From contig MHHG01000005.1 in the NCBI GenBank assembly GCA_001805965.1, positions 5,279-69,278 on the forward strand: DNA of 64,000 nt. The letters run 5' to 3'. Every line of letters begins with the position of its first letter. The stretch's first letter is position 1. The notes under the pieces are model-generated. The model searched no databases. It was given only the letters and a program-made list of their open reading frames with translations, and was not told where the DNA came from. This document shows, one piece after another, positions 1 through 23,684 of this stretch. A program made the position numbers and the translations under genes. The stretch comes from Omnitrophica WOR_2 bacterium RIFOXYA2_FULL_38_17 (GTDB lineage Bacteria; Omnitrophota; Gorgyraeia; Zapsychrales; Zapsychraceae).

Positions 1-1
1 T

Positions 2-919
2 GCTAAATGTAATTATTGTTATGCTACTTACTATGAACGTCCTGGTAATGATTTACCATTAATTGATATTAATAGGATAATAGACGATTTATCAGCAGCC
101 GGAACATTCAGGATCAATTTTGTTGGTGGAGAACCGTTAGTCAGAGATGATATCCACCAAATTATTTCTTATGCCAAAGATAAAAATATCAATTGTGCTC
201 TTACCACAAATGGACTATTAGTTAAACAAAATATCAAAACGCTTAAATTGCTTGACTCATTATGTTTCAGCATTGATGGCTGTGAAATAAATAATGACCT
301 TAACAGGGGGAAAGGTTCCTACAAAAAGGCTATCGAAGGATTGGAAATATGTAAAAATGAGAACATAAAAGTACAATTAAGCGCCGTACTAACAAAACAT
401 ACAGTAAATGATGTTGAACATATGGTAAACCTTGCTAGAAAGTATGATTGCAAAGTAGGATTTACAACATTAATTAGCCAGAATAGAGGACATAAAACTT
501 TTGATAATGATCTTCAGGCTGATATTGAACAGACAAAAAGTGCACTTAGACAGATAATTTTGCTGAAGGAAAATAATGCCCCGATATTGTTCTCTGTCGA
601 AACGTATAAAAACAGTTTATTATGGCCGGATTATAAGAAGGATATTTATTTCAAAGAAGAACCGGATTTTAAATATCCAAAATGTTATGCAGGAAAATAT
701 TTTTGTATTATTGATTACAACGGAGATATTTATCCTTGTCCTCAATTGATCGGAATATTTAAACCAAATAATATTCTAAAAAACGGATTTAAAGATGCTT
801 TTGATACTGCATCAAAGCATAGTTGTAATGCATGCTCAATGCCTTGTTCAAACGAATTTAGCATGTTTTTTGATCTTAACCCAAGAGTAATGTTCGACCT
901 ATTCATCAACAGGGAATGA
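2..919 (+). CDS. Radical SAM/SPASM-domain protein, 5' partial (start lies upstream of the window)
   Basis: The reading frame runs in from position 2 (AKCNYCYA..., the CxxC remainder of the CX3CX2C motif). It has the FVGGEPLV motif and a Cys-rich C-terminal SPASM-like segment (CYAGKYFC...YPCP...CNACSMPC). It is the same frame as track ORF 248..919 with no stop before it. Confidence 0.7.
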   Translation, partial: AKCNYCYATYYERPGNDLPLIDINRIIDDLSAAGTFRINFVGGEPLVRDDIHQIISYAKDKNINCALTTNGLLVKQNIKTLKLLDSLCFSIDGCEINNDLNRGKGSYKKAIEGLEICKNENIKVQLSAVLTKHTVNDVEHMVNLARKYDCKVGFTTLISQNRGHKTFDNDLQADIEQTKSALRQIILLKENNAPILFSVETYKNSLLWPDYKKDIYFKEEPDFKYPKCYAGKYFCIIDYNGDIYPCPQLIGIFKPNNILKNGFKDAFDTASKHSCNACSMPCSNEFSMFFDLNPRVMFDLFINRE

Positions 920-925
920 ATCAGT

Positions 926-1909
926 ATGTCTTTTTATAATAGAATAAAATCAGTTAATAGTTATATTAACGGTAAAACAACATCAGGCAATGTTTACCGC
1001 CTCGTAATAGAAATCAGCAATGCATGCAATCTGAAATGTTCAATGTGCCCAAGAAATAACATGGAACGTAAAGTTGAATTTATGACCAGCCAAGCATTTG
1101 AATCTATTATTAAAGACAATAAAGAAACTCTTGAATTTGTAAGCTTAAATGGTTACGGTGAACCTTTAATGCACCCGGAACTTTCAAGGTTCTTGAATAT
1201 TTGCAAGACATATAAGATTAAATCTGGCATTTCAACAAACTGCACCTTGCTTGATGAAAAAAGATCAAGAGAACTGCTAGAAAATCCCCCTGATTTAATT
1301 ATTCTTGCAATTGATGGAGCCACATCTGAAACTTATGAGGAGGTAAGGGTTGGTGCAAAATTTGACATTGTAATTAAAAATGTTAAACGTTTCCTGGGTA
1401 TGCGGAAAGGATACAACAAGAAACCTTTCGTAGTTCTCCAGTTTATTTATATGACAGAAACAAAATCACAAATTAACAAATTCAAAGGACTTTTTAACGG
1501 ATATGATTATGATTCGATTAGAATACGACAGTTAACACATTCCGGACGGAACAGGACAGATTCAAACTATAACAATTCTATGGGTTCTTGTTCATGGATA
1601 TGGAACGAACCAATGATATTGAGCGATGGAACTCTTGTCCCTTGTTGCCAAGATGTTAATGGCATTCTTAAATTAGGGAACATATTTAATGATCCCTTAA
1701 GTACGCTGTGGAATACTGGCTCTATTAATTCATTAAGGGAGAAGCATTCTTGTAATTTGCGCAAAACAATAAATTTATGCGAGCAATGTAATATGTATCA
1801 GCCCAGCTGGCCATTATTATTATGCAGCACCTTGTTTAACACAAAAGACCTAAATATGATCTTACCCTATGTTGAAACAATGCTTTCAATGCACAGATAT
1901 TGCAAATAA
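926..1909 (+). CDS. Radical SAM/SPASM-domain protein
   Basis: ISNACNLKCSMCPRN is a CX3CX2C motif. The GYGEPL motif is present. The C-terminal Cys cluster (LVPCCQDVNG, CNL...CEQCNMY) is SPASM/twitch-like. Confidence 0.7.
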   Translation: MSFYNRIKSVNSYINGKTTSGNVYRLVIEISNACNLKCSMCPRNNMERKVEFMTSQAFESIIKDNKETLEFVSLNGYGEPLMHPELSRFLNICKTYKIKSGISTNCTLLDEKRSRELLENPPDLIILAIDGATSETYEEVRVGAKFDIVIKNVKRFLGMRKGYNKKPFVVLQFIYMTETKSQINKFKGLFNGYDYDSIRIRQLTHSGRNRTDSNYNNSMGSCSWIWNEPMILSDGTLVPCCQDVNGILKLGNIFNDPLSTLWNTGSINSLREKHSCNLRKTINLCEQCNMYQPSWPLLLCSTLFNTKDLNMILPYVETMLSMHRYCK

Positions 1910-1918
1910 GGAACTTAA

Positions 1919-3283
1919 TTGAAACAAAAAGTCTTATTAGTTACTTCTCCGGCTATTCAAAAGAACAATTTTTGGACTTGTTCAATAACCAGCCCAATTG
2001 GCAGCATAATGCCTCCATGTGACTTGGCTTCAATAGCAGCTGTTTTACGTAAGAATAATATCGAGCCCAAAATACTCGAGATGCGTCATTTTAAAGACCC
2101 AATTCAAGCATTAAAGAATGAGGTCGCCGTTTTTCAACCTGATGCAATAGTCACTAATATTGGAACTGCCTCCGCAATTGAGGATTTTGAGATATTAGCA
2201 GCAGCTAAAGATACTGTTGAAAAACGTATTTGTTTCTGCTTTCATGCAATGGCGCTACCGGATGAACTGTTTGAAAAAGGGGCTACACATATTCTTGCCG
2301 GAGACCCTGAATATAGCATTGTAGCGGCAGTTCGTGGAGAGACCCTTGAAAAAGGCCTTTGGACAAAAGAAACAATCAAGAGAGAACCTGCCTGGATATC
2401 AGACCTTGATTCACTTCCTTTCCCGGCTTTAGACCTGATTGATATTGATGCATATCATGCACTTATCATGGGTAAAAATAGATTTGCGATATTGCTAAGC
2501 AATAGGGGGTGCCCTTATGAATGTCCGTATTGCGTTCTTCCGTTTCTATTTGGGCATAAGTTTAGAACAATGTCTGTTGATCGAGTAATTTCTGAGATCG
2601 AGCACAACATAAAGGAATTCGGCATCCGCTCATTTTTCTTTATTGATTCTGCCATCAATATAAATCCTCAATGGACCATGGAATTCTGTAAAGAAATACA
2701 AAGAAGAAACCTTAAGATACGCTGGTGCAGCAATATGAGAATTCCCCCTGTAACGAAAGAACTTTTGTATGAAATGAAAAAAGCAGGTTGTTTTCGTCTA
2801 TTCTATGGAGTAGAGGACCTTGACCTTTTAGAAAGATTGGACCGAAGAACAACAACAACTGCAACAAAAGAAGCTTTTGCATTAACTAGATCAGCAGGCA
2901 TAGAAACTGTTGCGTTTATAATTTTATTTCCAGATATTGATACAAATGAGAAAGTTATGGCGAAACGTATTATAAAAATGGTCTCAGACCTAAAAGCAGA
3001 TGCTATTCAGTGCAATATTGCAATTCCATATCCCGGCTCAAAAATGTATAATGAGTATATTGATAAATACAATATGTCAAAAAACTGGCAATTATATGAT
3101 CCTGCGGGAAATAAATACCCTTATAAAAGCAAACTGGATCTAGTAAAAACCAGACAATTGATATATTTGGGATTTTTCTTAAAAAATCCGATATATGTTT
3201 GGAATATAGTCAAGAACGCTAGCCTGCGCTCAATATTTACTTTTTTAAAAAATGCAACAATAGTGCTTTTCAATAGAAAATAA
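1919..3283 (+). CDS. Class B (B12-binding domain) radical SAM protein
   Basis: The N-terminal region looks like a B12-binding domain. The radical SAM motif is LSNRGCPYECPYC (CX3CX2C). A TTG start is supported by an AAGGA RBS 6 nt upstream. Confidence 0.65.
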   Translation: MKQKVLLVTSPAIQKNNFWTCSITSPIGSIMPPCDLASIAAVLRKNNIEPKILEMRHFKDPIQALKNEVAVFQPDAIVTNIGTASAIEDFEILAAAKDTVEKRICFCFHAMALPDELFEKGATHILAGDPEYSIVAAVRGETLEKGLWTKETIKREPAWISDLDSLPFPALDLIDIDAYHALIMGKNRFAILLSNRGCPYECPYCVLPFLFGHKFRTMSVDRVISEIEHNIKEFGIRSFFFIDSAININPQWTMEFCKEIQRRNLKIRWCSNMRIPPVTKELLYEMKKAGCFRLFYGVEDLDLLERLDRRTTTTATKEAFALTRSAGIETVAFIILFPDIDTNEKVMAKRIIKMVSDLKADAIQCNIAIPYPGSKMYNEYIDKYNMSKNWQLYDPAGNKYPYKSKLDLVKTRQLIYLGFFLKNPIYVWNIVKNASLRSIFTFLKNATIVLFNRK

Positions 3284-3287
3284 TATA

Positions 3288-4685
3288 ATGCGAATTATTC
3301 TACTATCACCACCATATTTACCGGAATACATGAGAAACGCCCGCTGTGATTTTGTTTCCATCTCTGCAACGCAATGGTACCCAATATTACTTGGTTATTG
3401 CGGAGCCTATCTGGAATACGAAGGACATACTGTAAAACTTATTGATGCCCCTGCCGCAGGATTAAACCATTCTCAAACAAAAATAATGATAGAAGAATGG
3501 TGCCCCAATCTTATCGTTCTTTATACCGGCAGAATGAGCGAAGACAATGACATCGCATTTGCTGAATCAATTATTGGATCAGTTAAATGTGACTGTGTTA
3601 TTGTGGGCCCTTATGCAAATATTGATCCTAAGGCTACTTTATCAAAATCAAAGATCATTAATAAGCTGGTAGCTGGAGAATTTGAACATCCTGTCGGGGA
3701 AATAGCTGGAGGCGTTGATCTTGGAAGCATTAAAAATCTGATATTCCGGAATGATGATACTATTCAAATAAACCCTACAAGAGAATATCTCACTACTGCA
3801 CAGCTTGATGAAATACCTTTCGTTTCAAGATTTTTTAGCAAGCAGCTCGATGAAAAATGGTACAAAACCCCATCTGAGTATTATCCTTATATTGACATTC
3901 TGACAGGAAGAGGCTGTAAATATGGACAATGCACTTACTGTTTGTGGGTTAATAGTTACGTTAAAGGCTCCACATATAACACAAGAAGCATAAACAATGT
4001 AATTGAAGAGTTTAAATATATTGAAAAAGAACTTCCTCATATCAGATCAGTTATGATACAAGATGATACTTTTACTGAAACAAGAGCAAGAGAGTTTAGC
4101 GATCAAATAATCAATTATGATATAAAGCTCCCATGGTCTTGTTATGCCCGAGCAAACATGAGCTACGGAACGATGCTCCTCATGAAAAAAGCTAATTGCA
4201 GGAATATCCACGTTGGTTATGAATCTGGCGACCCAAACATCCTGACCAGAATAAAAAAGGGGATTAGCATTGAAAGAATGATACGCTTTTCTCAAGATGC
4301 AAAAAAAGCCGGCTTACGAGTTCATGCTGATTTTGCGTTTGGATTTCCCGGAGAAACACCTGAAAACGCAAAAAAAACTGTTGAGTTAGCTTATAGAATG
4401 AACCCTCACACTTGCCAATTTCAAATAATGATACCCTTTCCAGGTACTCCATTTTATGACGAAATGAAGAAAAATGGATGGCTCAATAAGGATGGGCAAC
4501 CAGACATGCCGCAGTTCACAAATGACCAGATCAGAGAAGTTGCTAAATATGCATACAAAAGACTTTATATAAGTCCTAATTATTTGATCAAATGCATATG
4601 CCACCCATATGAGCACTTTTTTGCTAGAATAAAAGCCATTTCGCGAGCGATACCTGCATTATTCTGGAAAAAGTGGTCTTTATAA
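3288..4685 (+). CDS. Class B (B12-binding domain) radical SAM protein, variant CX4CX2C motif
   Basis: The motif ILTGRGCKYGQCTYC has C-x4-C-x2-C spacing. It is preceded by an N-terminal B12-binding-like domain. It is a paralog of 1919..3283 and of 43366..44805. Confidence 0.6.
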   Translation: MRIILLSPPYLPEYMRNARCDFVSISATQWYPILLGYCGAYLEYEGHTVKLIDAPAAGLNHSQTKIMIEEWCPNLIVLYTGRMSEDNDIAFAESIIGSVKCDCVIVGPYANIDPKATLSKSKIINKLVAGEFEHPVGEIAGGVDLGSIKNLIFRNDDTIQINPTREYLTTAQLDEIPFVSRFFSKQLDEKWYKTPSEYYPYIDILTGRGCKYGQCTYCLWVNSYVKGSTYNTRSINNVIEEFKYIEKELPHIRSVMIQDDTFTETRAREFSDQIINYDIKLPWSCYARANMSYGTMLLMKKANCRNIHVGYESGDPNILTRIKKGISIERMIRFSQDAKKAGLRVHADFAFGFPGETPENAKKTVELAYRMNPHTCQFQIMIPFPGTPFYDEMKKNGWLNKDGQPDMPQFTNDQIREVAKYAYKRLYISPNYLIKCICHPYEHFFARIKAISRAIPALFWKKWSL

Positions 4686-4775
4686 AATACTTTGTTTTTA
4701 TTATACGAATGATCATCACAAAATTACCTCATATATTCCTTGCATAGATTTTAATAATAGTAATAATATTAATTA

Positions 4776-6449
4776 ATGTTAAGTAAACTCATCCAAAAAC
4801 ACAAATTGATCATTGTTACATTAGCTTTAGTTCTTTCAACAATATTGCTAAAAAGAATATCTTATAGCTTTATTTTTCCTATTTTGTTCTTTTTGGGAAT
4901 TTCAAACAAAAAAGATATCTCTTACAGAAGAGGGCTGATCTTGCTAGCTTTCACAATTGTAGCAATAGGAATGTTCTCTTATGTAATGAACAATTCATTA
5001 GGCCGAGATGAAAACATGTATCTAACTTCATCCAAACTAATGGCATCCCAATCTTTGTACACTGATTTCGCATATTTCCAAATGCCCTATTTCCCGATCA
5101 TCACAGGCAATCTTTTTAAATTATTTAAAATTACCCATTATTTACTATTTGGAAGAATAATTGCTTTTGCCGCCATATTTTCATCTTCAATATTTATTTA
5201 CCTGATCTCAATTAAGCTTACAGGAAGTAAGTTCATATCGCTTACAAGCATGCTGATATTTTCTTTGAATGAAACAATTGTTAGGGCCTGCGGCTATGCA
5301 TGGAATCATGTTATGCCGATTACTTTTCTTTTAATTGCTTTACATTTTTATTTGAACAGCTACGTTGAGAACTCAAGATACAGGAGATTGTTTTTTTGCG
5401 GATCCTTTGCTGCTCTAGCTTCTGGAACAAAACTTTTCTATATTTCAACAACAATACCACTATTAATTTTTACTATATTCTATCCAAAGAAAATATCATA
5501 TAAGAATTATCTTAGAACTGAACTAACATCATTTATTTCTGGATTATTTGTTGGGTCATTTCCTATTTTTTATTATCTGTTTCGTAACCCCGAGATATTT
5601 ATTTTTAATAATTTCAAATATCACGATCTAAATTCACTATGGTACAAAGAAATTGGAACTTTTTCGCCAATATCCTTAAAACAAAAATTATACGCCGCAA
5701 AAGTTCTTTTGTTAAACAACTCAAATTTTTTTCCAACAGCAATAACAATCTTTTTTATAATAACCCTCTTGGTTTCTTTGACAAAACGAGAGAAGCCTAA
5801 TCTAAATTTTAAAATTAATTATATTGGCCTTTCTGCTTCAATGCTTATATTTGCGATAATTGTCGTATTTTTGCCTTCACCAATCCAAGAACTGTACTTT
5901 ATATTGCCATTTACTTTAATGCTATTCTTAACATTATGCTTTTACAACTCAATACCAAACCACTGTAATATTTATTTCAGAAGCATTTTTCTAGCAACAT
6001 CAATTATAGTTATGTTTTCTGGTGGACCTAGGCTCTTTCGTTATGCAGATGGGAGAACTTTTAGAACAGAGGGTTGGCGGGGCATGATAGTGCACCAAAC
6101 AGCAAATGAGATCAAAAAGAACATTCCTAACATGAAATCAATTGACTGCATCGCAACATTATCGCCTTTATACGCAATAGAATCTCAAACAAATATATAT
6201 AATGAATTTTCAACTGGACCCTTTTTGTATCGTGTCGGCCATTTTATTGATAAAAAGCTATTAGCAAGATATAAAGGAACATCAAAGATCCATTTGAATA
6301 CTTTTTTAGATGCTCAAGAACCTAAAGCTATCCTCGTCGGACACGATAAGCTAGTTGAGCAGCCCTTTATCGATTATGCTAATTCAAGAGGATATTTAAA
6401 GGTCGACAAGGATTTTGATGGCTTAACTTTATACATTTTAAACAAATAA
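4776..6449 (+). CDS. Polytopic membrane protein, GT-C-fold glycosyltransferase-like (ArnT/PMT-like)
   Basis: It has at least 10 predicted TM helices and an early loop with GRDENMY (a DE-type motif). Its size and topology resemble GT39/GT83 enzymes. Confidence 0.45.
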   Translation: MLSKLIQKHKLIIVTLALVLSTILLKRISYSFIFPILFFLGISNKKDISYRRGLILLAFTIVAIGMFSYVMNNSLGRDENMYLTSSKLMASQSLYTDFAYFQMPYFPIITGNLFKLFKITHYLLFGRIIAFAAIFSSSIFIYLISIKLTGSKFISLTSMLIFSLNETIVRACGYAWNHVMPITFLLIALHFYLNSYVENSRYRRLFFCGSFAALASGTKLFYISTTIPLLIFTIFYPKKISYKNYLRTELTSFISGLFVGSFPIFYYLFRNPEIFIFNNFKYHDLNSLWYKEIGTFSPISLKQKLYAAKVLLLNNSNFFPTAITIFFIITLLVSLTKREKPNLNFKINYIGLSASMLIFAIIVVFLPSPIQELYFILPFTLMLFLTLCFYNSIPNHCNIYFRSIFLATSIIVMFSGGPRLFRYADGRTFRTEGWRGMIVHQTANEIKKNIPNMKSIDCIATLSPLYAIESQTNIYNEFSTGPFLYRVGHFIDKKLLARYKGTSKIHLNTFLDAQEPKAILVGHDKLVEQPFIDYANSRGYLKVDKDFDGLTLYILNK

Positions 6450-6468
6450 TATTTTTCAGGAGATCTTC

Positions 6469-7335
6469 ATGAAACACTTGTTTATCGCATTACGGCCAAA
6501 GCACTGGATAAAAAATATGTTTATTTTTTTACCGCTTATATTTGGAAAAAAATTATTCATAAGCCCCTTGAACACTAATACTGTGCTGGCATTTTTCTTA
6601 TTTTCTATAGCAGCTAGTGCTGTATACCTGATGAATGACATAATTGACTGCGAAAAGGACAAAAAACATCCCGCAAAAAAAATGAGGCCCATTGCTGCAG
6701 GAAAGGTCAGCACTAATAAAGCAGTTATAACCTCAATTCTTCTGGGCTCAATAGCTATAGCAGGAGCATCTTTATTAAGCATTAAATTCTGTTCTATTAT
6801 CATGATCTATTTGATCGCAAATATAATATATTCAAAATTATTAAAAGAAGCTGTCATCATTGACGTATTTTGCATCGCTATATTCTTTTTTCTTCGTGTT
6901 TTAGCGGGAGGCATCATAGCAGAGACTGAAATATCTCATTGGCTTTTAATAATGACCACTTTAATAGCTTTGTTTTTAAGTTTGAACAAAAGAAGGCAGG
7001 AGCTGTTGATCACTGACCAAAATCTACAAGACAGAAGAGTCGTTCTTGATAAGTACAACACATATTTTATAGATCAAATGATCGCCGTTATTACTTCATC
7101 AGTTGTTATTTCATACATGCTTTACACTGTTGATGAAAGAACTGTAAGCGTATTTGGCACTAAAAATTTAATTTATTCTGTGCCGTTCGTATATTATGGC
7201 ATTTTTAGATATTTATATTTAATTCACAAAGCAAACGCTGATGGTGACCCTACAAAATTGTTTTTATCTGATTTTAAAATGCAGTTAAATGTTATATTGT
7301 GGCTTATCGTTTGCTCAGTTGTGATATATTTTTAA
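6469..7335 (+). CDS. UbiA-family prenyltransferase, decaprenyl-phosphate phosphoribosyltransferase-like
   Basis: The N-terminus LRPKHWIKNMFIFLPLIFG and the NDIIDCEKD (NDxxDxxxD) motif are typical of the Rv3806c/DPPR synthase subfamily. An AGGAG RBS sits upstream. Confidence 0.6.
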   Translation: MKHLFIALRPKHWIKNMFIFLPLIFGKKLFISPLNTNTVLAFFLFSIAASAVYLMNDIIDCEKDKKHPAKKMRPIAAGKVSTNKAVITSILLGSIAIAGASLLSIKFCSIIMIYLIANIIYSKLLKEAVIIDVFCIAIFFFLRVLAGGIIAETEISHWLLIMTTLIALFLSLNKRRQELLITDQNLQDRRVVLDKYNTYFIDQMIAVITSSVVISYMLYTVDERTVSVFGTKNLIYSVPFVYYGIFRYLYLIHKANADGDPTKLFLSDFKMQLNVILWLIVCSVVIYF

Positions 7336-7369
7336 AATGGTCTTAAAACTAACTTTGTAAGGAGAAAAT

Positions 7370-8407
7370 ATGAAGGTGCTTGTAACAGGTGGTTCAGGAT
7401 TTTTAGGCATAAACATGATAAGAAAACTTCTAGAGAAGGGCATAGAAGATATAGTATCTTTAGATCTGATCAAATTTGACTATCCGGAAATAGATAAGAT
7501 CAAAACCATAGTTGGAGATATCCGGAACATTGTTGATGTAGAAAAAGCTATGTCTGATATTGATATAGTAATTCACACTGCTGCCGCATTACCTTTATAC
7601 ACAAAAGAGGAGATTTACACAATTGATGTCGAGGGCACTCGAACACTCCTAAAAACTGCTCATAAGTTCAATGTCGATAGATTCATCATGATATCTTCAA
7701 CAGCAGTTTATGGAATACCAGACCATCATCCTTTGTATGAAGACGATAAACTTATTGGAGTTGGCCCATATGGTGAAGCTAAAATTAAAGCAGAAGAAGT
7801 CTGTTTTGAATTTAAGAAAAAAGGCATGTGTATCCCTATTCTTAGGCCAAAGTCCTTTATTGGCCCTGAAAGGCTTGGAGTTTTTGCACTCTTCTATGAT
7901 TGGGCCAAAGATGGCAAAGGTTTCCCCATGATCGGAAGCGGAAATAACAGATACCAACTCTTTGATGTAGAGGATCTTTGTGATTCAATTTATCTTTGCA
8001 TGACCAAAGAAAAATCTATAGTTAACGACATCTACAATGTTGGCGCTAAGGAATTCACTACAATGAAAGAAGATTACCAGGCAGTATTGGATAAAGCAGG
8101 CTTTGGCAAGAAGATCATAGGTTTTCCTGCCTGGCCAATGATAACCATATTAAGAATACTTGAATTCTTCAAATTGTCCCCATTGTATAAATGGGTGTAC
8201 GAAACTGCTTGTGAAGATTCATTTGTTTCAATAGAAAAAGCCGAACAAAAGCTCGGGTTCAAACCAAAGTATTCCAACAAAGATGCATTATTGAGAAATT
8301 ACAAATGGTACCTTGATAACTTTAAGAATTTTGAAGGTGCTTCGGGTATCTCCCATAGGGTTCCTTGGAAACAGGGGATATTGAGATTTTTTAAAATCTT
8401 TTTTTAA
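7370..8407 (+). CDS. NAD-dependent epimerase/dehydratase (extended SDR)
   Basis: The Rossmann motif VLVTGGSGFLG is present, with a YxxxK region and a strong AAGGAG RBS. Confidence 0.7.
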   Translation: MKVLVTGGSGFLGINMIRKLLEKGIEDIVSLDLIKFDYPEIDKIKTIVGDIRNIVDVEKAMSDIDIVIHTAAALPLYTKEEIYTIDVEGTRTLLKTAHKFNVDRFIMISSTAVYGIPDHHPLYEDDKLIGVGPYGEAKIKAEEVCFEFKKKGMCIPILRPKSFIGPERLGVFALFYDWAKDGKGFPMIGSGNNRYQLFDVEDLCDSIYLCMTKEKSIVNDIYNVGAKEFTTMKEDYQAVLDKAGFGKKIIGFPAWPMITILRILEFFKLSPLYKWVYETACEDSFVSIEKAEQKLGFKPKYSNKDALLRNYKWYLDNFKNFEGASGISHRVPWKQGILRFFKIFF

Positions 8408-8417
8408 AATATTATTT

Positions 8418-10882: not shown

Positions 10883-10923
10883 ATAAGACGCTAATTGTTA
10901 GCAGAACGTAAAAATACAACATA

Positions 10924-13052: not shown

Positions 13053-13061
13053 ACCTGAAAT

Positions 13062-15307: not shown

Positions 15308-15320
15308 CCACATATAAACC

Positions 15321-16457: not shown

Positions 16458-16467
16458 TTAATATTTT

Positions 16468-17619
16468 ATGATAAAAGTTCTGCACATAATCACTAGGCTT
16501 GATATCGGAGGATCTGCTACAAATACTATAGACACTGTAGCTAGATTAGATAAATCTAAATATCATGTATCTCTTGTCAGTGGAAAAACCATTGACCCTG
16601 ATGGTGTAATTGAAGAAAAGCTCATCAATTATAATATGGATTATACTTTTATTAATGAACTGCGTCGTGAAATCAATCCCTTCCTGGATATCATATCCCT
16701 TATTAAGCTTTGCGATCATATAAAGAAAGGGAACTACGATATTGTTCATACCCATTCATCAAAAGCTGGAATACTGGGCCGCTGGGCTGCTAAGTTAGCA
16801 GGGGCTAAACATATAGTTCACACTCCGCATGGGCATGTTTTTCATAGTTACTTCAGCAGGCTTTTAACTGCAGTATTCTTGTTAGTTGAAAAATTTACCG
16901 CAAAATTCACAGACAAAATCATTACATTGACAATAAAAGGAAAACTTGAACACATTAAATATGGTATCGCAAAGCCAAGCAAATTTGTTCAAATATACAG
17001 CGGTGTGGATTTCAATAGAATAAGCATTAACAATGATTTTTCACAAAAAATTAAAAATGATCTAAAAATCGATAATGACAATATAGTTTTCGGAACTGTA
17101 ACTAGATTAGAGCCTATTAAAGGAAATGATTGCTTAATCGAGGCAATGGCTGAAGTTGTTAAAAACATCCCAAATTCACTATTAGTAATTGTTGGGGATG
17201 GCGCTGAGAGACAAAACCTCATTGAGCTAGCAGAATCATTAAATATTATTGATAAAGTGAGGTTTGCTGGATTCAGGCATAATAAATATGACTTTATAAA
17301 TATTTTTGACATTTTTGTTCTAAGCTCGCTTAACGAGGGAATGGGAAGAGCAATACTTGAAGCTATGTATTTAAAAAAACCGGTTATTGCAAGCGATACG
17401 GGTGGGATTCCAGAGCTGGTAGCTGAAGGTAAAACTGGTATGCTAGTTACACCTGGCGATTCTAATGCTTTGTCAGAAGCAATGATCACTTTAGCAAAAA
17501 ACAAAGAGCAGATTGTGGATTTTGGTGACAGCGGAAATAAATTAGCAAATGATTTGTTCAGCCTAGATACAATGATATCCAAAATTGAGGATTTATACGA
17601 AAGCCTTTTAAACAAATGA
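16468..17619 (+). CDS. GT4 family glycosyltransferase
   Basis: DIGGSATN is at the N-terminus. The C-terminal motif is EGMGRAILEAMYLKKPVIASDTGGIPE. Confidence 0.75.
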   Translation: MIKVLHIITRLDIGGSATNTIDTVARLDKSKYHVSLVSGKTIDPDGVIEEKLINYNMDYTFINELRREINPFLDIISLIKLCDHIKKGNYDIVHTHSSKAGILGRWAAKLAGAKHIVHTPHGHVFHSYFSRLLTAVFLLVEKFTAKFTDKIITLTIKGKLEHIKYGIAKPSKFVQIYSGVDFNRISINNDFSQKIKNDLKIDNDNIVFGTVTRLEPIKGNDCLIEAMAEVVKNIPNSLLVIVGDGAERQNLIELAESLNIIDKVRFAGFRHNKYDFINIFDIFVLSSLNEGMGRAILEAMYLKKPVIASDTGGIPELVAEGKTGMLVTPGDSNALSEAMITLAKNKEQIVDFGDSGNKLANDLFSLDTMISKIEDLYESLLNK

Positions 17620-18305
17620 TCGTTTCAATACATCAGCCACAATACTTGCCCTGGTTAGGATATTTTGACAAACTTATCCGTTCAGATGTTTTTATTTTGC
17701 TTGATAATGTACAGTTTAAAAAGAACGATTGGCAGAACAGAAATAGAATAAAGACCTCTCAAGGTGCTAAGTGGATAACTGTCCCTGTAATTCATGATTT
17801 CGGGCAAGTTATTTCTGAAACGAAGATAAACAATACTGTTAACTGGAAAGAAGAGCACATAAAAACACTAACTGTTAACTATAGTAAAGCTATGTATTTT
17901 AAAAAATACATACCTTTATTTGAAGAAGCATATAGTCAAGATTGGGAATTTTTATCTGACATAAATATTTATTTTATTAAAAAGCTTGCTAAAGTATTAT
18001 GTATTGACACAAAGATCGTAAGAGCCTCTGATTACGATACAACTGATGATAGAACGGTCAGGCTTGTGGACCTGTGCAAGACTTTTAAGGCAGATACATA
18101 TTTATCTGGCATTGACGGAAAAAAATACATGGATTTTGAAATATTTGAGCAAAACAATATAAACATTGTGACTCAGGAATATAATCACCCGGTTTATTCA
18201 CAACTATTTTGTAAAAAAAACACCAATGCTTTTGAGCCAAATATGTCAATAGTAGATCTGATCTTTAACTGCGGCGAAGAGAGCAAAGATATAATATCAA
18301 CATAA
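17616..18305 (+). CDS. WbqC-like family protein
   Basis: The N-terminus MIVSIHQPQYLPWLGYFDKL is diagnostic of the WbqC family. Its start overlaps the previous stop (ATGA). Confidence 0.75.
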   Translation: MIVSIHQPQYLPWLGYFDKLIRSDVFILLDNVQFKKNDWQNRNRIKTSQGAKWITVPVIHDFGQVISETKINNTVNWKEEHIKTLTVNYSKAMYFKKYIPLFEEAYSQDWEFLSDINIYFIKKLAKVLCIDTKIVRASDYDTTDDRTVRLVDLCKTFKADTYLSGIDGKKYMDFEIFEQNNINIVTQEYNHPVYSQLFCKKNTNAFEPNMSIVDLIFNCGEESKDIIST

Positions 18306-18324
18306 TGCGTTTTGGGAGACAGGA

Positions 18325-19365
18325 ATGAAAATATTAATTACAGGCGGCGCAGGAATGGTGGGTTCTCATTGTGCTGAATATTTCGTTAAGAAAAAACATA
18401 AAGTAACGATTATTGACAATTTAATGCGTTCTAAAATATTCGGTTCCGACACAAAGTCAGTTGAATATAATTGGAATTACTTAAAAACGATTAAAAATAT
18501 AAAACTGATAAAAAAAGACGTGAGAGATAGTGCCTCAATGGCCAGAATATTCAAAGATGAAAAGCCGGATGTTGTTATTCATGCCGCTGGACAGCCCGGC
18601 GTAAGATATTCCCTGGATAATCCTCTTGAAGACTGCACAATAAATTCTAATGGCACGATCTCGGTACTTGAAGCTTTGCGCAACGCAAACAAGAAAGGAA
18701 TATTCATATACACATCTTCTAACAAGGTTTATGGCAACAATGTCAATAAAGTACCTCTAAAAGAGAGCAAAATGCGTTATGATTTCAAGCTCTCGCAAGG
18801 CATAAATGAATGTTTCAGCATTGATCTTACTGGGCACACTCCATATGGTGTATCAAAGCTATCTGGCGATCTCTATGCTCAAGACTATGCCCATGCTTAC
18901 GGTCTTAAAACAGGCGTCTTTAGAATGAGCTGCATATATGGGACACGTCAGTTTGGATTTGAGGACCAGGGATGGCTTGCATGGTTTGCAATAAGGTACT
19001 TTCTTGGGAAGCCGATCACAATTTATGGGAACGGAAAACAGATACGCGATATTCTTTGGGTTGAAGACCTTGCAAAAGCTTTTGACTCATTTATAAAAAG
19101 TGAGCATAAAAGTGAAGTTTTCAATATGGGCGGCGGAACAAAAAATACGCTTTCCCTTCTAGAATTAACGAACATTTTAGAGGATATTTCCGGTAAAAAA
19201 ATTAAAATAAAATATGCTGATTGGAGAAAATTCGATCAAAAGGTTTACATTTCGGACATATCAAAAGTAAATAAACTTTTAAAATGGAGACCTTCTGTAT
19301 CACCTCGTGAAGGAGTCGCGAGACTTTATAATTGGGTTTCTCAAAACCCAAGACTTTTCAAATAA
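18325..19365 (+). CDS. NDP-sugar epimerase (extended SDR, CDP-paratose 2-epimerase / UDP-Glc 4-epimerase family)
   Basis: The Rossmann motif ILITGGAGMVGSH is present, with a YxxxK motif (YGVSKLSGD). Confidence 0.7.
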   Translation: MKILITGGAGMVGSHCAEYFVKKKHKVTIIDNLMRSKIFGSDTKSVEYNWNYLKTIKNIKLIKKDVRDSASMARIFKDEKPDVVIHAAGQPGVRYSLDNPLEDCTINSNGTISVLEALRNANKKGIFIYTSSNKVYGNNVNKVPLKESKMRYDFKLSQGINECFSIDLTGHTPYGVSKLSGDLYAQDYAHAYGLKTGVFRMSCIYGTRQFGFEDQGWLAWFAIRYFLGKPITIYGNGKQIRDILWVEDLAKAFDSFIKSEHKSEVFNMGGGTKNTLSLLELTNILEDISGKKIKIKYADWRKFDQKVYISDISKVNKLLKWRPSVSPREGVARLYNWVSQNPRLFK

Positions 19366-19408
19366 TCTTTTATGAAAAAGCCTTGGCAAAAATACAGGAG
19401 ATAAACAT

Positions 19409-20026
19409 ATGAACATATTAGCCATTGGTGCACACCCAGATGATATTGAATTAGGTTGTGCCGGGACTCTGTTGAAATACACAAGATCAGGAGACAATGT
19501 TTATTTGCTGGTTCTTAGTGACGGGTCCAAGGGAGGGGATTGCTCGGTCAGAAAACTAGAACAAATAGAAGCCAGCAATATTATGGGTGCTAAAGAATTG
19601 ATATGGGGCGATTGGAATGATACTGAATTTGACGTGACAAATGAGAATGTTGAATATATTGAGAATATCATAAAGAGGCTACAGCCGGATGAGATCTATG
19701 TCAACTATTTCGACGATTCTCACCAGGATCATAGAGCCCTTGCGCAGTGTGTAATATCTGCAACCAGATATTGCAAAAGAGTCCTTTTTTACGAGGATTA
19801 CACCTCTCAAAATTTTGAACCTAATATTTTCGTTGATATTAGTGAGGTGCTTAATGAAAAATTCAGACTAATGAAAACCTTTAAATCCCAGCTAGAAAAA
19901 AATACATCTGATGAGCCAACAATGCTTGAAAATATAAGATCCGTAGCAAGATTCAGGGGCTTTCAGGCAAAGATAAATTTCGCAGAAGGATTTATGCCTC
20001 TAAGATACATTAAGTTAATAAACTAA
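19409..20026 (+). CDS. PIG-L / LmbE family N-acetylglucosaminyl deacetylase
   Basis: ILAIGAHPDDIELGCAGTL is the PIG-L signature. An HQDH motif is present. Confidence 0.8.
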   Translation: MNILAIGAHPDDIELGCAGTLLKYTRSGDNVYLLVLSDGSKGGDCSVRKLEQIEASNIMGAKELIWGDWNDTEFDVTNENVEYIENIIKRLQPDEIYVNYFDDSHQDHRALAQCVISATRYCKRVLFYEDYTSQNFEPNIFVDISEVLNEKFRLMKTFKSQLEKNTSDEPTMLENIRSVARFRGFQAKINFAEGFMPLRYIKLIN

Positions 20027-20038
20027 TAATTTCTGATC

Positions 20039-21097
20039 ATGAAATATAATATCCCACATTCTAAACCCACTATAAGTTCAAAAGACATATCCTCAGTACT
20101 GAAAACTCTTAGGGCTAAACAAATATCTCAAGGCCCTATGGTAGAGAAATTCGAGAAGTCTTTCTCAAAATATCATAATTTAAAAGGTTCCGTTGCTTTA
20201 AGCTCCGGAACTGCAGCAATTCACTTATCGCTATTAGCATTAGGGATACAAGATGAGGATGAAGTTATTGTCCCTTCTTTCGTATGCAGCGCTCTTCTGA
20301 ATGCTGTCCTGTATACTGGTGCAAAGCCCGTTCTTGCTGATGTCAACAATCATGATTTTAATTTATCAATAGACTCGGCCAAAAATGCCCTAACGAAAAG
20401 AACAAAAGCTATTATTGTTCCTCATATGTTTGGTCTTCCAGCGGACATAAAAGACCTTGTTAGGCTAGGGATTCCGGTTATTGAGGATTGCGCTCAATCA
20501 TTAGGGGCAGAATACAACAAACAGAAAGTCGGCAGCTTTGGCGCGGTCAGTGTTTTCTCTTTTTATGCAACAAAGGTGATCGCAACTGGAGAGGGAGGAA
20601 TGGTTTCCTCTAACAATGCAAGATTATTAAGTAAGATCTCAGATATGCGAGAATACGATAAAAAGAAATTTTGTAAATTAAGCTTTAACTATAAAATGAC
20701 TGATATACAAGCAGCTCTTGGCCTATCTCAAATGGAAAAGCTTCCTACGTTCATTAGAGGACGTAGATCAATTGCCAGAAAATATAATAATGCCTTTACT
20801 GACTGCCATTTGCAAATACCAACAAGTTTGCCTGGCAAAGACCATATATATTATAGGTATGTTATTAATCTCGGAAGATCTTCTGCAGACACAATAAGAA
20901 CTCTGAATAAAAAAGGGGTCCATTGTGCCTGTCCAATCTTTGAGCCTTTACACAAACAAATGAACATGGATGCAAAATATTTTCCAAATTCCCAAGAGTT
21001 ATTTAAGAACACCTTATCCTTGCCGATATATCCATCTTTATCAAAGCAAGAAGTGGACTTCATTATTCAAAGTTTAAAAAACTCACTTGAAAAATAA
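20039..21097 (+). CDS. DegT/DnrJ/EryC1/StrS family sugar aminotransferase
   Basis: Typical length and motifs are present (…FYATKVIATGEGGMV…). It has a PLP-dependent fold. Confidence 0.8.
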   Translation: MKYNIPHSKPTISSKDISSVLKTLRAKQISQGPMVEKFEKSFSKYHNLKGSVALSSGTAAIHLSLLALGIQDEDEVIVPSFVCSALLNAVLYTGAKPVLADVNNHDFNLSIDSAKNALTKRTKAIIVPHMFGLPADIKDLVRLGIPVIEDCAQSLGAEYNKQKVGSFGAVSVFSFYATKVIATGEGGMVSSNNARLLSKISDMREYDKKKFCKLSFNYKMTDIQAALGLSQMEKLPTFIRGRRSIARKYNNAFTDCHLQIPTSLPGKDHIYYRYVINLGRSSADTIRTLNKKGVHCACPIFEPLHKQMNMDAKYFPNSQELFKNTLSLPIYPSLSKQEVDFIIQSLKNSLEK

Positions 21098-23684
21098 AAT
21101 GCCAAAGTTGCAAATTCAAACTAGATCAACAAAAACAACCTTTAAGCTTATAGCTTTCCTTTTTTTGATCCTTTGCGGGTTAGGCCTGATAATATATTCA
21201 GCCTCATTCAATGGTGAATTTGTATTTGATGACCTAGAATTTGTTTTGAACAATAACTATATTACAGATTACAGCAGAATAAGTAATTTCTGGGAAAGAG
21301 AAGCCTTTCCTAGAACAAGATTGCTTCCGATCTATTCTTTTGCCTTAAATTACCAAATCAATCAATTGAATGTTTTTGGTTATCACGTGTTTAATTTTAT
21401 TATTCATATAATTACAACAATTTTTGTCTGGTGGTTTTCATATTTAATATTTTCTTTGCCAGTTTTTAAAAATGAAGAGTTCTCAAAACATAAACACGCT
21501 ATTTCATTTATATCTGCATTACTGTTCTTGTCTCATCCAATCCAAACTCAAGCAGTCACATATATAACCCAACGATTTGCATCAATGGCAACTCTTTTTT
21601 ATATGGGATCAATGTGCTTTTATCTTAAAGGCAGGATGCTCAAGAATAGACCGCGTTTACCGATCGTTTTTTATTTATTATCGGCTTTTTTTGCAATTTG
21701 TGCAATGTTATCAAAAGAAATATCAATAACGATCCCTTTTAACATGTTGTTCGTTGAATATTTTTTAATTAATATCCCTAAATCCGGGATTTCTGTTAAA
21801 GATCCAAAATCTTTATCAAGCTTTCTGATTCCAATAAAAATCTTTGTTTTGCCCATTGCAGCATTTATTGCCGGGTTCAACTTTCTTTTTCGAAACACGA
21901 TATTCGGATTACTATCGATAGTTCTAAAATCTGAATCACATACCGGAGAGATTATAACCTTTGGAAAATATATTTTGACACAGCCACGGGTATTCGTTAA
22001 ATATTTAAGGTTACTTTTTCTCCCGATTTATCAGAATCTGGATTATGATTTTCAGCTATCAAAATCTATTTTTGAATTTTCCACTTTTTCTAGTTTTATA
22101 ATTCTTATTTGCTTATTAATATTTGCATTAAAAATCAGAAATAAATACCGGCTAGCTTCCTTCGGGATTTTCTGGTTTTTTATAACTCTTTGGGCGAATC
22201 TTGTCCCTAGATCAAACTTGATATTTGAGCATAAACTTTATTTGGTTTCTGTCGGGTTTTGTATTGCATTAAGTTTTTGCATCTTTAATTTTTTCAAAAA
22301 TCCCAAAACATCATTAACTGCCAGCATGGTTATAGTTATTATTTTTTCATTCATGACATTCAAGAGGAATGAAGTATGGAAAACCGAGATTTCTTTATGC
22401 AAGGATGTCGTATCAAAATCACCGAATAAACTAAGGCCTAATCAGAACATGGGCAGTGCTTATACTAAAAAAGGTTATTATGATGAGGCTCTTGTTTATT
22501 TAAGTAAATCCTTATCCATAGATCCAAAGGATGTTAAATCATACACAAATAGGGGAGCAGTTTATTACCACAAAAGACAATTTCAGCTAGCTTTAAACGA
22601 TCTAAACAAAGCTGTTGAGATCGATCCTGAATATTTTGGAAGTTATGTAAATAGGGGCTTGGTCTTTCAGGAGATTGGCAAGCATCAATTAGCATTCAAT
22701 GATTTCACTAAAGCCCTTCAAATAAAACCAAATTTAAGGCTGGGATATGTAAGCCGCGGCAACCTTTTAAACCTTACTGGCCATTATGATTATGCTATTC
22801 AGGATTTTAATCAGGCGATATCAATTTCCCCTCATTATGATGATGCTTACAACGGAAGAGGGGTGACCTATTTTAAACTGAACAGACATCAAGAAGCCCT
22901 TGCTGACTTTAATAAAGCCATCACTATTAATCCATATTCAAGCAAAGCGTACTTAAACAGGGGATATTTTTATTTTTTAAGAAATAATGACGATCAGTCC
23001 TTATCCGACTTAAACAGATCTATTGAGCTTAATGATAGCTATGCAATGGCATATAATAATCGAGGCATCTTATTCAGAAAAATGAAAATGTATAATGAAG
23101 CAATAAAAGATTTTAACAAATCAATTGATTTAGACCCTAATCAAGCCAATGCGTTCAATAACAGGGCAACAGTTTATTATATGCAGAATAAATACAGCTT
23201 AGCTCTATCAGATTATAACCAAGCTTTAAAAAATAATCCCGGGTATGACAGGACATACAACAACAGAGGGGTGCTTTTTGTTGCTGCAAAACAATATGAG
23301 AATGCTATTTCTGACTTTACCCAGGCAATTAAACTGAACAGTGCGGATTCGAACGCTTATCTAAACAGGGCAGCTGTTTACTATTATACAAAAGAGTATT
23401 CATCATCTGTTAATGATTACAGTCATATAATTAATAATAATCTTAATAATGTGATTGCACTTTTTAACAGAGGCGTTGCTTCATATTCTAACGGAGACTA
23501 CACTAATGCCGCATTAGATTTTGACAAAGCGATCGAGCTTAAAGGGGATTTTGCAAAAGCATTTTGGATGAGATCAAATACTTATAAATACTTAGGACTT
23601 ATGCAAAAAGCAGAAAAAGATCTAGATACTTCAAAAAGCTTAGGAATTAAGATTGAAGAGCAAAAAATAGATATTATTCACTAG
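21087..23684 (+). CDS. TMTC-like protein: N-terminal PMT_2/DUF1736 polytopic membrane domain plus C-terminal TPR repeats (protein O-mannosyltransferase-like)
   Basis: The first ~420 aa are TM-rich, with an FDD loop motif. They are followed by ~12 TPR units with repeated AxxNRG/AYxNRG patterns. An alternative start at 21099 lies just after the DegT stop. Confidence 0.6.
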   Translation: MKNKMPKLQIQTRSTKTTFKLIAFLFLILCGLGLIIYSASFNGEFVFDDLEFVLNNNYITDYSRISNFWEREAFPRTRLLPIYSFALNYQINQLNVFGYHVFNFIIHIITTIFVWWFSYLIFSLPVFKNEEFSKHKHAISFISALLFLSHPIQTQAVTYITQRFASMATLFYMGSMCFYLKGRMLKNRPRLPIVFYLLSAFFAICAMLSKEISITIPFNMLFVEYFLINIPKSGISVKDPKSLSSFLIPIKIFVLPIAAFIAGFNFLFRNTIFGLLSIVLKSESHTGEIITFGKYILTQPRVFVKYLRLLFLPIYQNLDYDFQLSKSIFEFSTFSSFIILICLLIFALKIRNKYRLASFGIFWFFITLWANLVPRSNLIFEHKLYLVSVGFCIALSFCIFNFFKNPKTSLTASMVIVIIFSFMTFKRNEVWKTEISLCKDVVSKSPNKLRPNQNMGSAYTKKGYYDEALVYLSKSLSIDPKDVKSYTNRGAVYYHKRQFQLALNDLNKAVEIDPEYFGSYVNRGLVFQEIGKHQLAFNDFTKALQIKPNLRLGYVSRGNLLNLTGHYDYAIQDFNQAISISPHYDDAYNGRGVTYFKLNRHQEALADFNKAITINPYSSKAYLNRGYFYFLRNNDDQSLSDLNRSIELNDSYAMAYNNRGILFRKMKMYNEAIKDFNKSIDLDPNQANAFNNRATVYYMQNKYSLALSDYNQALKNNPGYDRTYNNRGVLFVAAKQYENAISDFTQAIKLNSADSNAYLNRAAVYYYTKEYSSSVNDYSHIINNNLNNVIALFNRGVASYSNGDYTNAALDFDKAIELKGDFAKAFWMRSNTYKYLGLMQKAEKDLDTSKSLGIKIEEQKIDIIH

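Follow-up and report, generated by a model that had tools for sequence, protein, structure and literature searches.

Gene content of the locus

We examined a 64,000-nucleotide stretch of the genome of the uncultured Omnitrophica WOR_2 bacterium RIFOXYA2_FULL_38_17 (assembly GCA_001805965.1, contig MHHG01000005.1, positions 5,279 to 69,278, forward strand), here called the window. Its first 23,684 nucleotides had been described in a first-pass annotation as one island in which four radical S-adenosylmethionine (SAM) enzymes are coupled to a set of glycan-assembly genes. A listing of open reading frames (ORFs) upheld the run of 20 consecutive genes, in that 20 back-to-back + strand ORFs (g1 to g20) fill positions 2-23684. 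The gaps between them range from -4 to 90 bp, and the small spacings and four ATGA overlaps (9965, 11937, 14180 and 17616) that had been reported are real. Nearly all of the family calls were also backed by Pfam and NCBIfam profile searches. At about even confidence, we regard the region as a mosaic of separable units: a radical SAM module (unit A), which recurs in distant lineages and is our main subject, and three units that follow it (B, C and D).

Unit A extends beyond the window. The island had been taken to start at position 1, but this start only reflects the window edge: g1 is cut short there, and seven more module genes and a glycosyltransferase family 4 (GT4) gene lie upstream on the contig. 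From the same contig, retrieved around g4 and around g2, unit A was delimited as window positions 1-4685 plus ~8.6 kb upstream, a 12-gene block. The module order is a glycosyltransferase of family 2 (GT2), a radical SAM enzyme, a GDSL-like protein, an HpnA-like short-chain dehydrogenase/reductase (SDR), a methyltransferase, a protein with 13 transmembrane (TM) helices and a B12-type radical SAM enzyme, followed by g1-g4. What had appeared to be a radical SAM quartet at the head of the island is thus a set of six radical SAM genes, two of which (u1 and u6) lie upstream of g1-g4. The genes are listed here in order; handles beginning with L denote individual loci.

Upstream of the module GT2: GT4 gene, seen only in part
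First module gene: module GT2, 393 aa, a membrane GT2
After the GT2: u1, radical SAM enzyme, 357 aa, with BlsE as its closest solved relative
After u1: u2, GDSL-like protein
After u2: module SDR, 325 aa, HpnA-like (186 bits, under the NCBIfam cutoff)
After the SDR: methyltransferase, 250 aa, UbiE-like
L001 3195-5105: u5, 636 aa, 13 TM helices, no family
Just before g1: u6, 501 aa, B12-binding radical SAM enzyme (PF02310 present)
1..919, + strand: g1, SPASM-type radical SAM enzyme of 340 aa, of which the window edge leaves the 3' 305 codons (Pfam Radical_SAM and Fer4_12)
926..1909, + strand: g2, radical SAM enzyme with SPASM domain (PF04055 and PF13186, the latter at E 7.6e-10), an optional module member
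1919..3283, + strand: g3, AprD4-like radical SAM enzyme of class-B-like architecture, an optional module member
3288..4685, + strand: g4, HpnJ-like radical SAM enzyme, the signature gene of the conserved module

The signature protein, g4, aligns over its full length with the HpnJ model TIGR03471 at 314.8 bits and does not reach the equivalog cutoff of 577.6. It has 1496 homologs at E<=1e-10, and the best 120 of these are 55-69% identical to it and come from many phyla. The g4 family carries a non-canonical CX4CX2C motif, whose cysteines C210, C215 and C218 are invariant in 25 aligned sequences (residues 210-218, window positions 3915-3941); the canonical CX3CX2C is found in the five remaining radical SAM enzymes of the module. 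In g3 it is at residue 198. The g3 protein scores 113 bits against the NCBIfam AprD4 model, below cutoff, and 100 bits over residues 30-383 against the structure of AprD4 (PDB 6fd2), a sugar diol dehydratase. AprD4 is reported to work without cobalamin, and it acts together with an SDR partner; an SDR is encoded in the module too. For g2 the closest solved relative is the aminocyclitol dehydrogenase BtrN (4m7t, E 9e-12), and best-hit orthologs of g2 were found in 15 loci. A complete copy of g1 is available in L090 (8972-9994), where it shows CX3CX2C and six C-terminal cysteines. Relatives of g1 in the PDB are 9dfu, the viperins and BlsE, and u6 matches TokK, AprD4 and OxsB.

The first-pass annotation had seen in g1-g4 two SPASM and two B12-dependent enzymes. 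All four are indeed radical SAM proteins, and the SPASM domain is present in g2; B12 dependence, however, was not demonstrated for g3 and g4, neither of which has a Pfam match to the B12-binding domain PF02310. That domain is seen, often weakly, in many g4 orthologs.

In the module GT2, one TM segment is predicted at the N-terminus and two or more at the C-terminus; DxD and ADD motifs are present and QxxRW is absent. Its best solved relative is the membrane GT2 6yv7, with weaker matches to ArnC and ceramide glucosyltransferase.

The identical sequence is also present in several metagenome assemblies and in the metagenome-assembled genome (MAG) GCA_003500255.1, annotated as Candidatus Omnitrophica. 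Assemblies from the same population differ in that the GDSL-like u2 is absent or truncated in L002, L003 and L005 as compared with L001 and L004. In the NCBI MAG L003, moreover, g5 falls into two pieces of 307 and 145 aa, and g8 is cut down to 361 aa. These differences in g5, g8 and u2 reflect either strain-level decay of GT-C genes or assembly error.

Conservation of the module across genomes

Neighbourhoods of g4 were compared in 80 loci, drawn from species-representative genomes and reaching at most 10 kb to either side, and three more loci were obtained through exact look-ups. The census counts 79 independent loci; 8 kb or more of sequence was available on the downstream side in 40 and on the upstream side in 42. 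Three approaches gave concordant results: best-hit BLAST, phmmer used permissively, and all-against-all clustering of the ORFs from the 80 loci.

The loci span more than 15 phyla. The bearers belong to anaerobic phyla, most of them uncultured, which include Planctomycetota (including anammox bacteria), Omnitrophota, Desulfobacterota, Chloroflexota, Elusimicrobiota and Nitrospinota. In the ORF clustering of the 80 loci, a ~400-aa GT2 accompanies g4 in 51, a methyltransferase in 46, an HpnA-like SDR in 44 and a twitch/SPASM radical SAM enzyme of the u1/g1 type in 37. Rarer partners are radical SAM enzymes of the u6, g3 and g2 types, a second GT2 of small size (in 15 loci) and a protein resembling fatty-acid desaturases (in 8). 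In the gene-order maps one string recurs, made up of GT2, radical SAM, SDR, methyltransferase, an optional membrane protein, g4 and a further optional membrane protein. We therefore define the core of the module as the ~400-aa membrane GT2, a twitch/SPASM radical SAM enzyme, the HpnA-like SDR, the SAM methyltransferase, g4 and one or two large membrane proteins, usually GT-C glycosyltransferases of the PMT_2 type. An extended form, with u6, g3, g2 and g1, adds B12-type, AprD4-like, BtrN-like and second SPASM radical SAM enzymes to this core; g1 is thus an optional extension member, with relatives beside g4 in 28-37 of the 79 loci. The full version with six radical SAM genes is found in Planctomycetota, a second Omnitrophota lineage, Firestonebacteria and Kuenenia. 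As one example, we point to the planctomycete locus L009, in which the gene order is nearly identical to that in the source genome; reduced versions occur in Abyssobacteria (L007) and Deltaproteobacteria (L008).

The genes that follow g4 in the window have a very different distribution. Relatives of g6 (UbiA), g8, g16 (WbqC) and g18 (PIG-L) are found in none of the 79 loci, GT4 genes in three (L050, L052 and L083), DegT in two and a g20-like protein in two. Only one Omnitrophota relative, near-identical to the source (L071/L072, 82-95% identity), repeats the adjacency of the module to the glycan genes that follow it. The neighbourhood test thus does not bear out the proposal that the radical SAM genes and the GT4/WbqC/LmbE/DegT/TPR set form one system. 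Because the downstream genes are not conserved beside g4, that proposal fails by the standard its own authors had named for refuting it.

Two further observations concern the distribution of the module. A Candidatus Woesearchaeota archaeon MAG (DPANN; L059) has two g4-type genes (47% identity), together with u6-type and SPASM-type radical SAM, GT2, SDR and methyltransferase genes; this reflects either inter-domain transfer or mis-binning. The desaturase-family gene, encoding ~267 aa, lies directly upstream of g4 in its 8 loci (L066, L073, L076, L089, L033 and others), which include Nitrospinota and Acidobacteriota MAGs, and may point to a lipid substrate, or else to an alternative step that depends on oxygen, in these lineages.

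Membrane proteins of the module and a likely boundary before g5

Almost every locus encodes polytopic membrane proteins of 450-850 aa, one to three per locus. BLAST and jackhmmer searches for relatives of u5, g5 and g8 in the 80 loci returned almost none, and profile-profile comparison was needed. Those encoded after g4 are GT-C proteins of the PMT_2 or YfhO type, some of which pass and some of which approach the corresponding Pfam models. Clusters c14, c23 and c33 are mutually homologous (hhalign 99.6%), and c23 matches the g5 family at 94.8%. A separate group, the "memA" proteins of cluster 11 (12 loci) together with u5, has 636-680 aa and 11-15 TM helices.

The boundary between the module and the genes that follow it is likely to lie in front of g5:

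4686..4775, no strand: gap of 90 bp, the largest in the island, and likely boundary separating the radical SAM module from the glycan genes that follow
4776..6449, + strand: g5, GT-C fold membrane glycosyltransferase, ArnT-like

An AlphaFold2 model of g5 (pLDDT 81, pTM 0.84) was compared with solved structures by Foldseek. ArnT (5f15) is the best match, at E 2e-7 and a TM score of 0.59-0.61, followed by ALG12, STT3/PglB, AftA and Pmt4. The predicted fold thus bears out the earlier description of g5 as GT-C-like. By position, g5 corresponds to the terminal GT-C of the module in other phyla, and its close homologs accompany glycan genes. Homologs of g5 are few, and one of them, in L092, heads an operon of g9-, g10- and g11-like glycosyltransferases that has no radical SAM gene, and for this reason we place the boundary at 4686-4775.

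Predicted function of unit A

We consider it about as probable as its opposite that unit A is an uncharacterised system in which a lipid-linked sugar is tailored by radical chemistry and then transferred outside the cytoplasm, a reading built by analogy. A sugar would first be attached by the GT2 to a carrier lipid, for which polyprenyl phosphate is the likeliest candidate. Remodelling of the lipid-linked sugar at the cytoplasmic face would then fall to the SDR, the methyltransferase and the radical SAM enzymes. Candidate reactions are an HpnJ-type ring contraction and, in the extended versions, deoxygenation, oxidation and methylation. The product would be flipped, and a GT-C protein would transfer the sugar to an acceptor in the envelope. 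The donors of GT-C enzymes are linked to lipid phosphate and are used on the membrane's outer face. The identity of the carrier lipid, the sequence and chemistry of the tailoring steps and the acceptor are our suppositions, drawn from the observed gene association, folds and homologies, and our confidence in any single step is much lower than in the general scheme.

The choice of a sugar substrate is guided by the closest characterised relatives of the module radical SAM enzymes, which act on sugar or cyclitol rings: HpnJ for g4, AprD4 for g3, BtrN for g2 and, for u1, the glucuronate decarboxylase BlsE. HpnJ is genetically required for contracting the glucosamine of bacteriohopanetetrol glucosamine into a cyclitol ether, and both HpnJ and the archaeal calditol synthase have lipid-linked sugars as substrates (PMC13459092). 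The suggestion that radical SAM chemistry operates here in a glycan context holds insofar as the conserved partners are glycosylation machinery; this is the module's own, mostly upstream set of GT2, SDR, methyltransferase and GT-C proteins, and not the GT4/WbqC/LmbE/DegT set to which the suggestion had referred.

Several observations weigh against this interpretation. No unit A protein reaches any curated NCBIfam cutoff, so that every function is assigned by analogy. No flippase was identified for unit A, and the module GT2 has no close similarity to polyprenyl-phosphate glycosyltransferases of the ArnC/GtrB type (21-25 bits, marginal). The u5 and memA proteins match no Pfam or NCBIfam family, profile comparison with the GT-C clusters gave no convincing similarity, and they are not demonstrably GT-C; a role as flippase, polymerase or novel transferase is possible. 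The desaturase beside g4 and the Hpn-type similarities would fit a membrane-lipid head-group pathway equally well. Finally, the loci were sampled within 10 kb of g4 only, and almost all come from MAGs.

The head-group pathway is the most direct competitor. Unit A could be a paralogue of HpnI/HpnJ/HpnA in which the GT2 adds a sugar to a membrane lipid, this sugar is contracted to a cyclitol by the HpnJ-like enzyme, and the methyltransferase and the other radical SAM enzymes modify either head group or lipid; we regard this as unlikely. It would account for the full-length homology of g4 to HpnJ (315 bits), the HpnA-like SDR (186 bits), the weak HpnI, ceramide glucosyltransferase and GT21 signals of the GT2 and the FA_desaturase gene adjoining g4, and the lipid-linked substrates of HpnJ and calditol synthase (PMC13459092) speak for it as well. 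Every Hpn match, however, is far under its equivalog cutoff; the L007 module GT2, for example, scores 27.7 bits against HpnI, where the cutoff is 310. No squalene-hopene cyclase or hpn gene forms a conserved neighbour cluster within 10 kb of g4, and the module lacks an HpnK-type deacetylase, no PIG-L gene being present in any of the 79 loci. The pathway would also leave unexplained the persistent GT-C proteins of the PMT_2 and YfhO types, which use lipid-phosphate donors outside the cytoplasm.

It is very improbable, in our view, that the SPASM and B12-type enzymes are unrelated to sugars and act instead as maturases of ribosomally synthesized and post-translationally modified peptides (RiPPs) or in cofactor biosynthesis. 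Weak NCBIfam matches of 40-120 bits to mycofactocin, sactipeptide and ranthipeptide maturases, NirJ, AhbC/D and MoaA would suggest as much, but they lie 3- to 10-fold under the cutoffs (the best, to the mycofactocin maturase, is 119 bits against 265). The conserved partners are GT2, SDR, methyltransferase and GT-C proteins rather than peptidases, exporters or cofactor genes, and the best solved relatives of the radical SAM enzymes act on sugars. All ORFs of at least 40 aa in positions 1-23800 overlap large genes and the gaps in the upstream module are no longer than 60 bp; there is accordingly no free small ORF in either part that could encode a precursor peptide, and the peptide cross-linking role once suggested for these enzymes finds no support. 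We rejected a RiPP system on the grounds of the missing precursor gene and the wrong partners, and cofactor biosynthesis on the grounds of scores far under cutoff and no cofactor genes nearby.

Returning to a tailored lipid-linked sugar, we put forward only tentatively, as something that may well prove wrong, a more specific proposal: that the module represents an undescribed class of envelope modification, in which a carbocyclic or radically rearranged, methylated sugar is made on a lipid carrier and placed on the surface by a GT-C enzyme. To our knowledge, carbocyclic or radically rearranged sugar chemistry of this sort is not known for any bacterial surface glycan. Literature searches found no description of the module, and no curated model was found for any member. 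One bearer of the extended module is the anammox bacterium Candidatus Kuenenia sp. (L083). The S-layer O-glycan of K. stuttgartiensis contains methylated N-acetylhexosamine and an unexplained 174-Da unit, with no biosynthetic genes assigned (PMC5088730); that paper names no radical SAM gene cluster.

The phyla in which the module recurs dominate anoxic sediments, groundwater and anammox reactors, and the g4 family has ~1,500 detectable homologs. Were the proposed function correct, radical SAM chemistry (ring contraction, deoxygenation and C-methylation) would join the few ways in which bacteria diversify surface glycans outside the cytoplasm. It would also explain the presence of HpnJ-like enzymes in organisms and contexts without hopanoid genes, and would point to new sugar structures and possible biomarkers.

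Genes downstream of the module

The three genes that follow g5 resemble, possibly together with g5 itself, a side-chain system for pentofuranose such as is known from Citrobacter, and we call them unit B:

6469..7335, + strand: g6, UbiA-family polyprenyl-phosphate phosphoribosyltransferase of the PPPRS/DPPR synthase type (PF01040), 288 aa, UbiA domain only
7370..8407, + strand: g7, extended SDR of the GalE/HpnA type (PF01370, E 1.7e-36), with TGGSGFLG and YGEAK motifs (TGxxGxxG and YxxxK)
8418..9968, + strand: g8, polytopic membrane protein with at least 8 TM helices (PMT_2 E 5e-4, under the gathering score)

Of these, g6 passes the NCBIfam model for decaprenyl-phosphate phosphoribosyltransferase (NF008977), at 285.9 bits against a cutoff of 234, and g8 has a weak match to the LA_3751/3752 putative glycosyltransferase family. 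In Citrobacter youngae O1/O2, a UbiA-type polyprenyl-phosphoribose synthase, a flippase and a GT-C act together, an optional GalE-like SDR epimerises the lipid-linked ribofuranose, and in the periplasm the GT-C adds the pentofuranose to the glycan once this is finished (Kelly et al., PNAS 2024, PMC11127046). By analogy with ORF13 of C. youngae O2 (PMC11127046), g7 is a candidate epimerase of polyprenyl-phosphate-pentofuranose, and g8 is a probable GT-C that would use the product of g6 and g7. The first-pass suggestion that a UbiA-type enzyme, an SDR and a GT-C make and use a polyprenyl-phosphate sugar thus finds a match in the parts list of a published three-component system (PMC11127046). Two differences count against our assignment: Pfam searches found no phosphoribose phosphatase family (PRP domain or PAP2-type) in the 20 genes, and no flippase family of the MATE or SMR/GtrA type in positions 1-23684, where there is also no free small ORF. 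Unit B would extend the recently described pentofuranose system to a candidate phylum.

Unit C (g9-g19) is a conventional cytoplasmic set for glycan and amino-sugar assembly with Leloir glycosyltransferases, and unit D is the single gene g20:

9965..10882, + strand: g9, GT2, WcaA-like (PF00535, E 1.4e-34; WcaA 110 bits, below cutoff)
10924..11940, + strand: g10, Glyco_trans_1_2 (CgeB-family) glycosyltransferase (PF13524, E 1.1e-26)
11937-13052, 13062-14183, 14180-15307, 15321-16457 and 16468-17619, + strand: g11-g15, five GT4 enzymes (PF00534, E 1e-32 to 4e-43)
17616..18305, + strand: g16, WbqC family (PF08889, E 1.8e-76)
18325..19365, + strand: g17, SDR of the nucleoside-diphosphate-sugar 4,6-dehydratase/4-epimerase type (PF16363 and PF01370)
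19409..20026, + strand: g18, PIG-L/LmbE-family deacetylase, BshB1-like (PF02585, E 4e-24; BshB1 127 bits, cutoff 182.5)
20039..21097, + strand: g19, DegT-family sugar aminotransferase, PseC/LegC-like (PF01041, E 6e-91; PseC 263 bits, cutoff 423.5)
21099..23684, + strand: g20, PMT-like GT-C membrane domain (~430 aa) fused to ~12 tetratricopeptide repeats (TPRs); called start ATG at 21099, 861 aa

The best NCBIfam matches of g11-g15 are stp2, BshA and GlgA-like, all below cutoff, and g17 is likewise under the cutoffs for dTDP-glucose 4,6-dehydratase (160 bits) and GalE (148 bits). When the region was compared with O-antigen and capsule loci, g9-g19 supplied the Leloir glycosyltransferases and nucleotide-sugar tailoring genes; no initiating phosphoglycosyltransferase, Wzx/Wzy flippase or polymerase, or ABC exporter was found in the 20 genes or in the sampled remainder of the window.

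The membrane domain of g20 has the PMT type of GT-C fold, and the C-terminal array matches TPR_1 at E 7.6e-82 in nine stretches, so that the TMTC-like architecture proposed for this protein stands. The N-terminal domain has no Pfam match even at E<=10, and PMT, PMT_2 and DUF1736 are absent from the 25 most frequent families of 25 g20 homologs. When the g20 family profile was run against PDB sequences, TPR matches swamped the result. The family is large, with 36,489 cluster representatives in many contexts. By analogy with PMT and TMTC, unit D plausibly acts on a protein acceptor.

Setting of the locus and relationship among the units

Co-directionality, which had been offered as a mark of the island, does not set the 20 genes apart: some 60 of the 63 genes in the window are on the + strand, including the housekeeping genes after position 23684 (citrate synthase, M17 peptidase, fumarase, the Rnf complex, aconitase and ThiC). 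The appearance of a single island arises in part from the window edge combined with a uniformly co-directional genome. The earlier description was therefore in part an artefact of window position and strand bias; it flagged something that merits attention, though not the coupling that it proposed. The case also carries a wider lesson, that an edge of this sort and such a genome can make unrelated units resemble one island.

Only three genes in the 64 kb are on the - strand (43366-44805, 55287-55943 and 59640-61469). The last of these, an ORF of 609 aa, matches nothing in Pfam at E<=1e-5. Two further radical SAM genes lie in the housekeeping part of the window, at 37135-38163 (+) and 43366-44805 (-), the latter encoding 479 aa. 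The cumulative GC skew climbs steadily over the window, consistent with one replichore of a strongly co-oriented genome. Base composition does not shift across the region and so gives no hint of recent transfer. The 64 kb yielded neither a tRNA nor an Rfam family, and promoter and terminator scans gave counts equal to the shuffled expectation, which is uninformative on operon structure.

We also weighed the reading closest to the original description, in which a single pathway comprises all 20 genes together with those upstream: the radical SAM enzymes would tailor a glycan made by the GT2 and GT4 enzymes, and the TMTC-like g20 would attach it to protein. The tight spacing on a single strand, the glycan genes on both sides of the module (including the upstream GT4), the PMT-like nature of g20, the retention of the arrangement in L071/L072 and the presence of GT4 genes near the module in L050, L052 and L083 all favour such a pathway, and it is common for published GT-C side-chain modules to lie within the locus for the glycan that they decorate (PMC11127046). 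We nonetheless consider it rather unlikely, given that UbiA, g8, WbqC and PIG-L relatives are missing from all 79 loci and GT4, DegT and g20-like genes occur in only two or three, and that homologs of g5 and g9-g12 form an operon without radical SAM genes. The strand argument is undercut by the housekeeping genes, which share the orientation, and the huge g20 family is not context-specific. Nor was a priming transferase, flippase, polymerase or ABC exporter found in the window. A 20-gene operon as a single conserved unit is rejected by the co-occurrence test.

Under the mosaic interpretation it is still possible that units A-D share one product in this organism. Unit C would then build a backbone, and units A and B would each supply a lipid-linked donor for GT-C-mediated decoration. 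Such a link of A and B to the glycan of C would be lineage-specific and is not a property of the module.

Comparison with known systems

The hopanoid Hpn pathway is like unit A in that the HpnJ model aligns with the whole of g4 and HpnA with the module SDR, and in that a membrane GT2 is the first module gene; a lipid-linked hexose or hexosamine is also a plausible substrate class. The two differ in that unit A scores about half of the equivalog cutoffs and has no HpnK, cyclase or other hpn gene conserved nearby, whereas the Hpn pathway is without the one to five further radical SAM enzymes, the methyltransferase and the GT-C proteins of unit A.

Arn (4-amino-4-deoxy-L-arabinose, L-Ara4N, on lipid A) and the Gtr/YfhO-CsbB systems share with unit A the pairing of a membrane GT2 with a GT-C of the PMT_2 or YfhO type. 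As in Arn, the tailoring enzymes of unit A are encoded in the same operon, and ArnT is the structurally nearest relative of g5. Tailoring in unit A, by contrast, would be by radical SAM enzymes and not by enzymes of the ArnA/B/D type, and no flippase was identified. The radical SAM enzymes of aminoglycoside and nucleoside antibiotic pathways (the diol dehydratase AprD4, the dehydrogenase BtrN and the decarboxylase BlsE) act on sugar or cyclitol rings and are closest to g3, g2 and u1, respectively. Identities to them are low, however, and the context of unit A is envelope glycosylation in anaerobic environmental phyla rather than an antibiotic cluster.

Among the downstream units, g20 differs from the eukaryotic TMTC1-4 and PMT O-mannosyltransferases in that its N-terminal domain lacks a Pfam PMT or DUF1736 match. 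Unit B is like the Citrobacter pentofuranose system, itself related to mycobacterial DPPR/DPA-Emb/Aft arabinan synthesis, in having a UbiA-type synthase (g6), a GalE-like SDR (g7) and adjoining GT-C-type proteins (g8 and g5) set among Leloir glycosyltransferase genes. Units B, C and D add new members to kinds already known. The general logic of unit A, that of a GT2, a GT-C and tailoring enzymes, is likewise known; new are its radical SAM complement, the breadth of phyla in which it occurs and the lack of any previous description.

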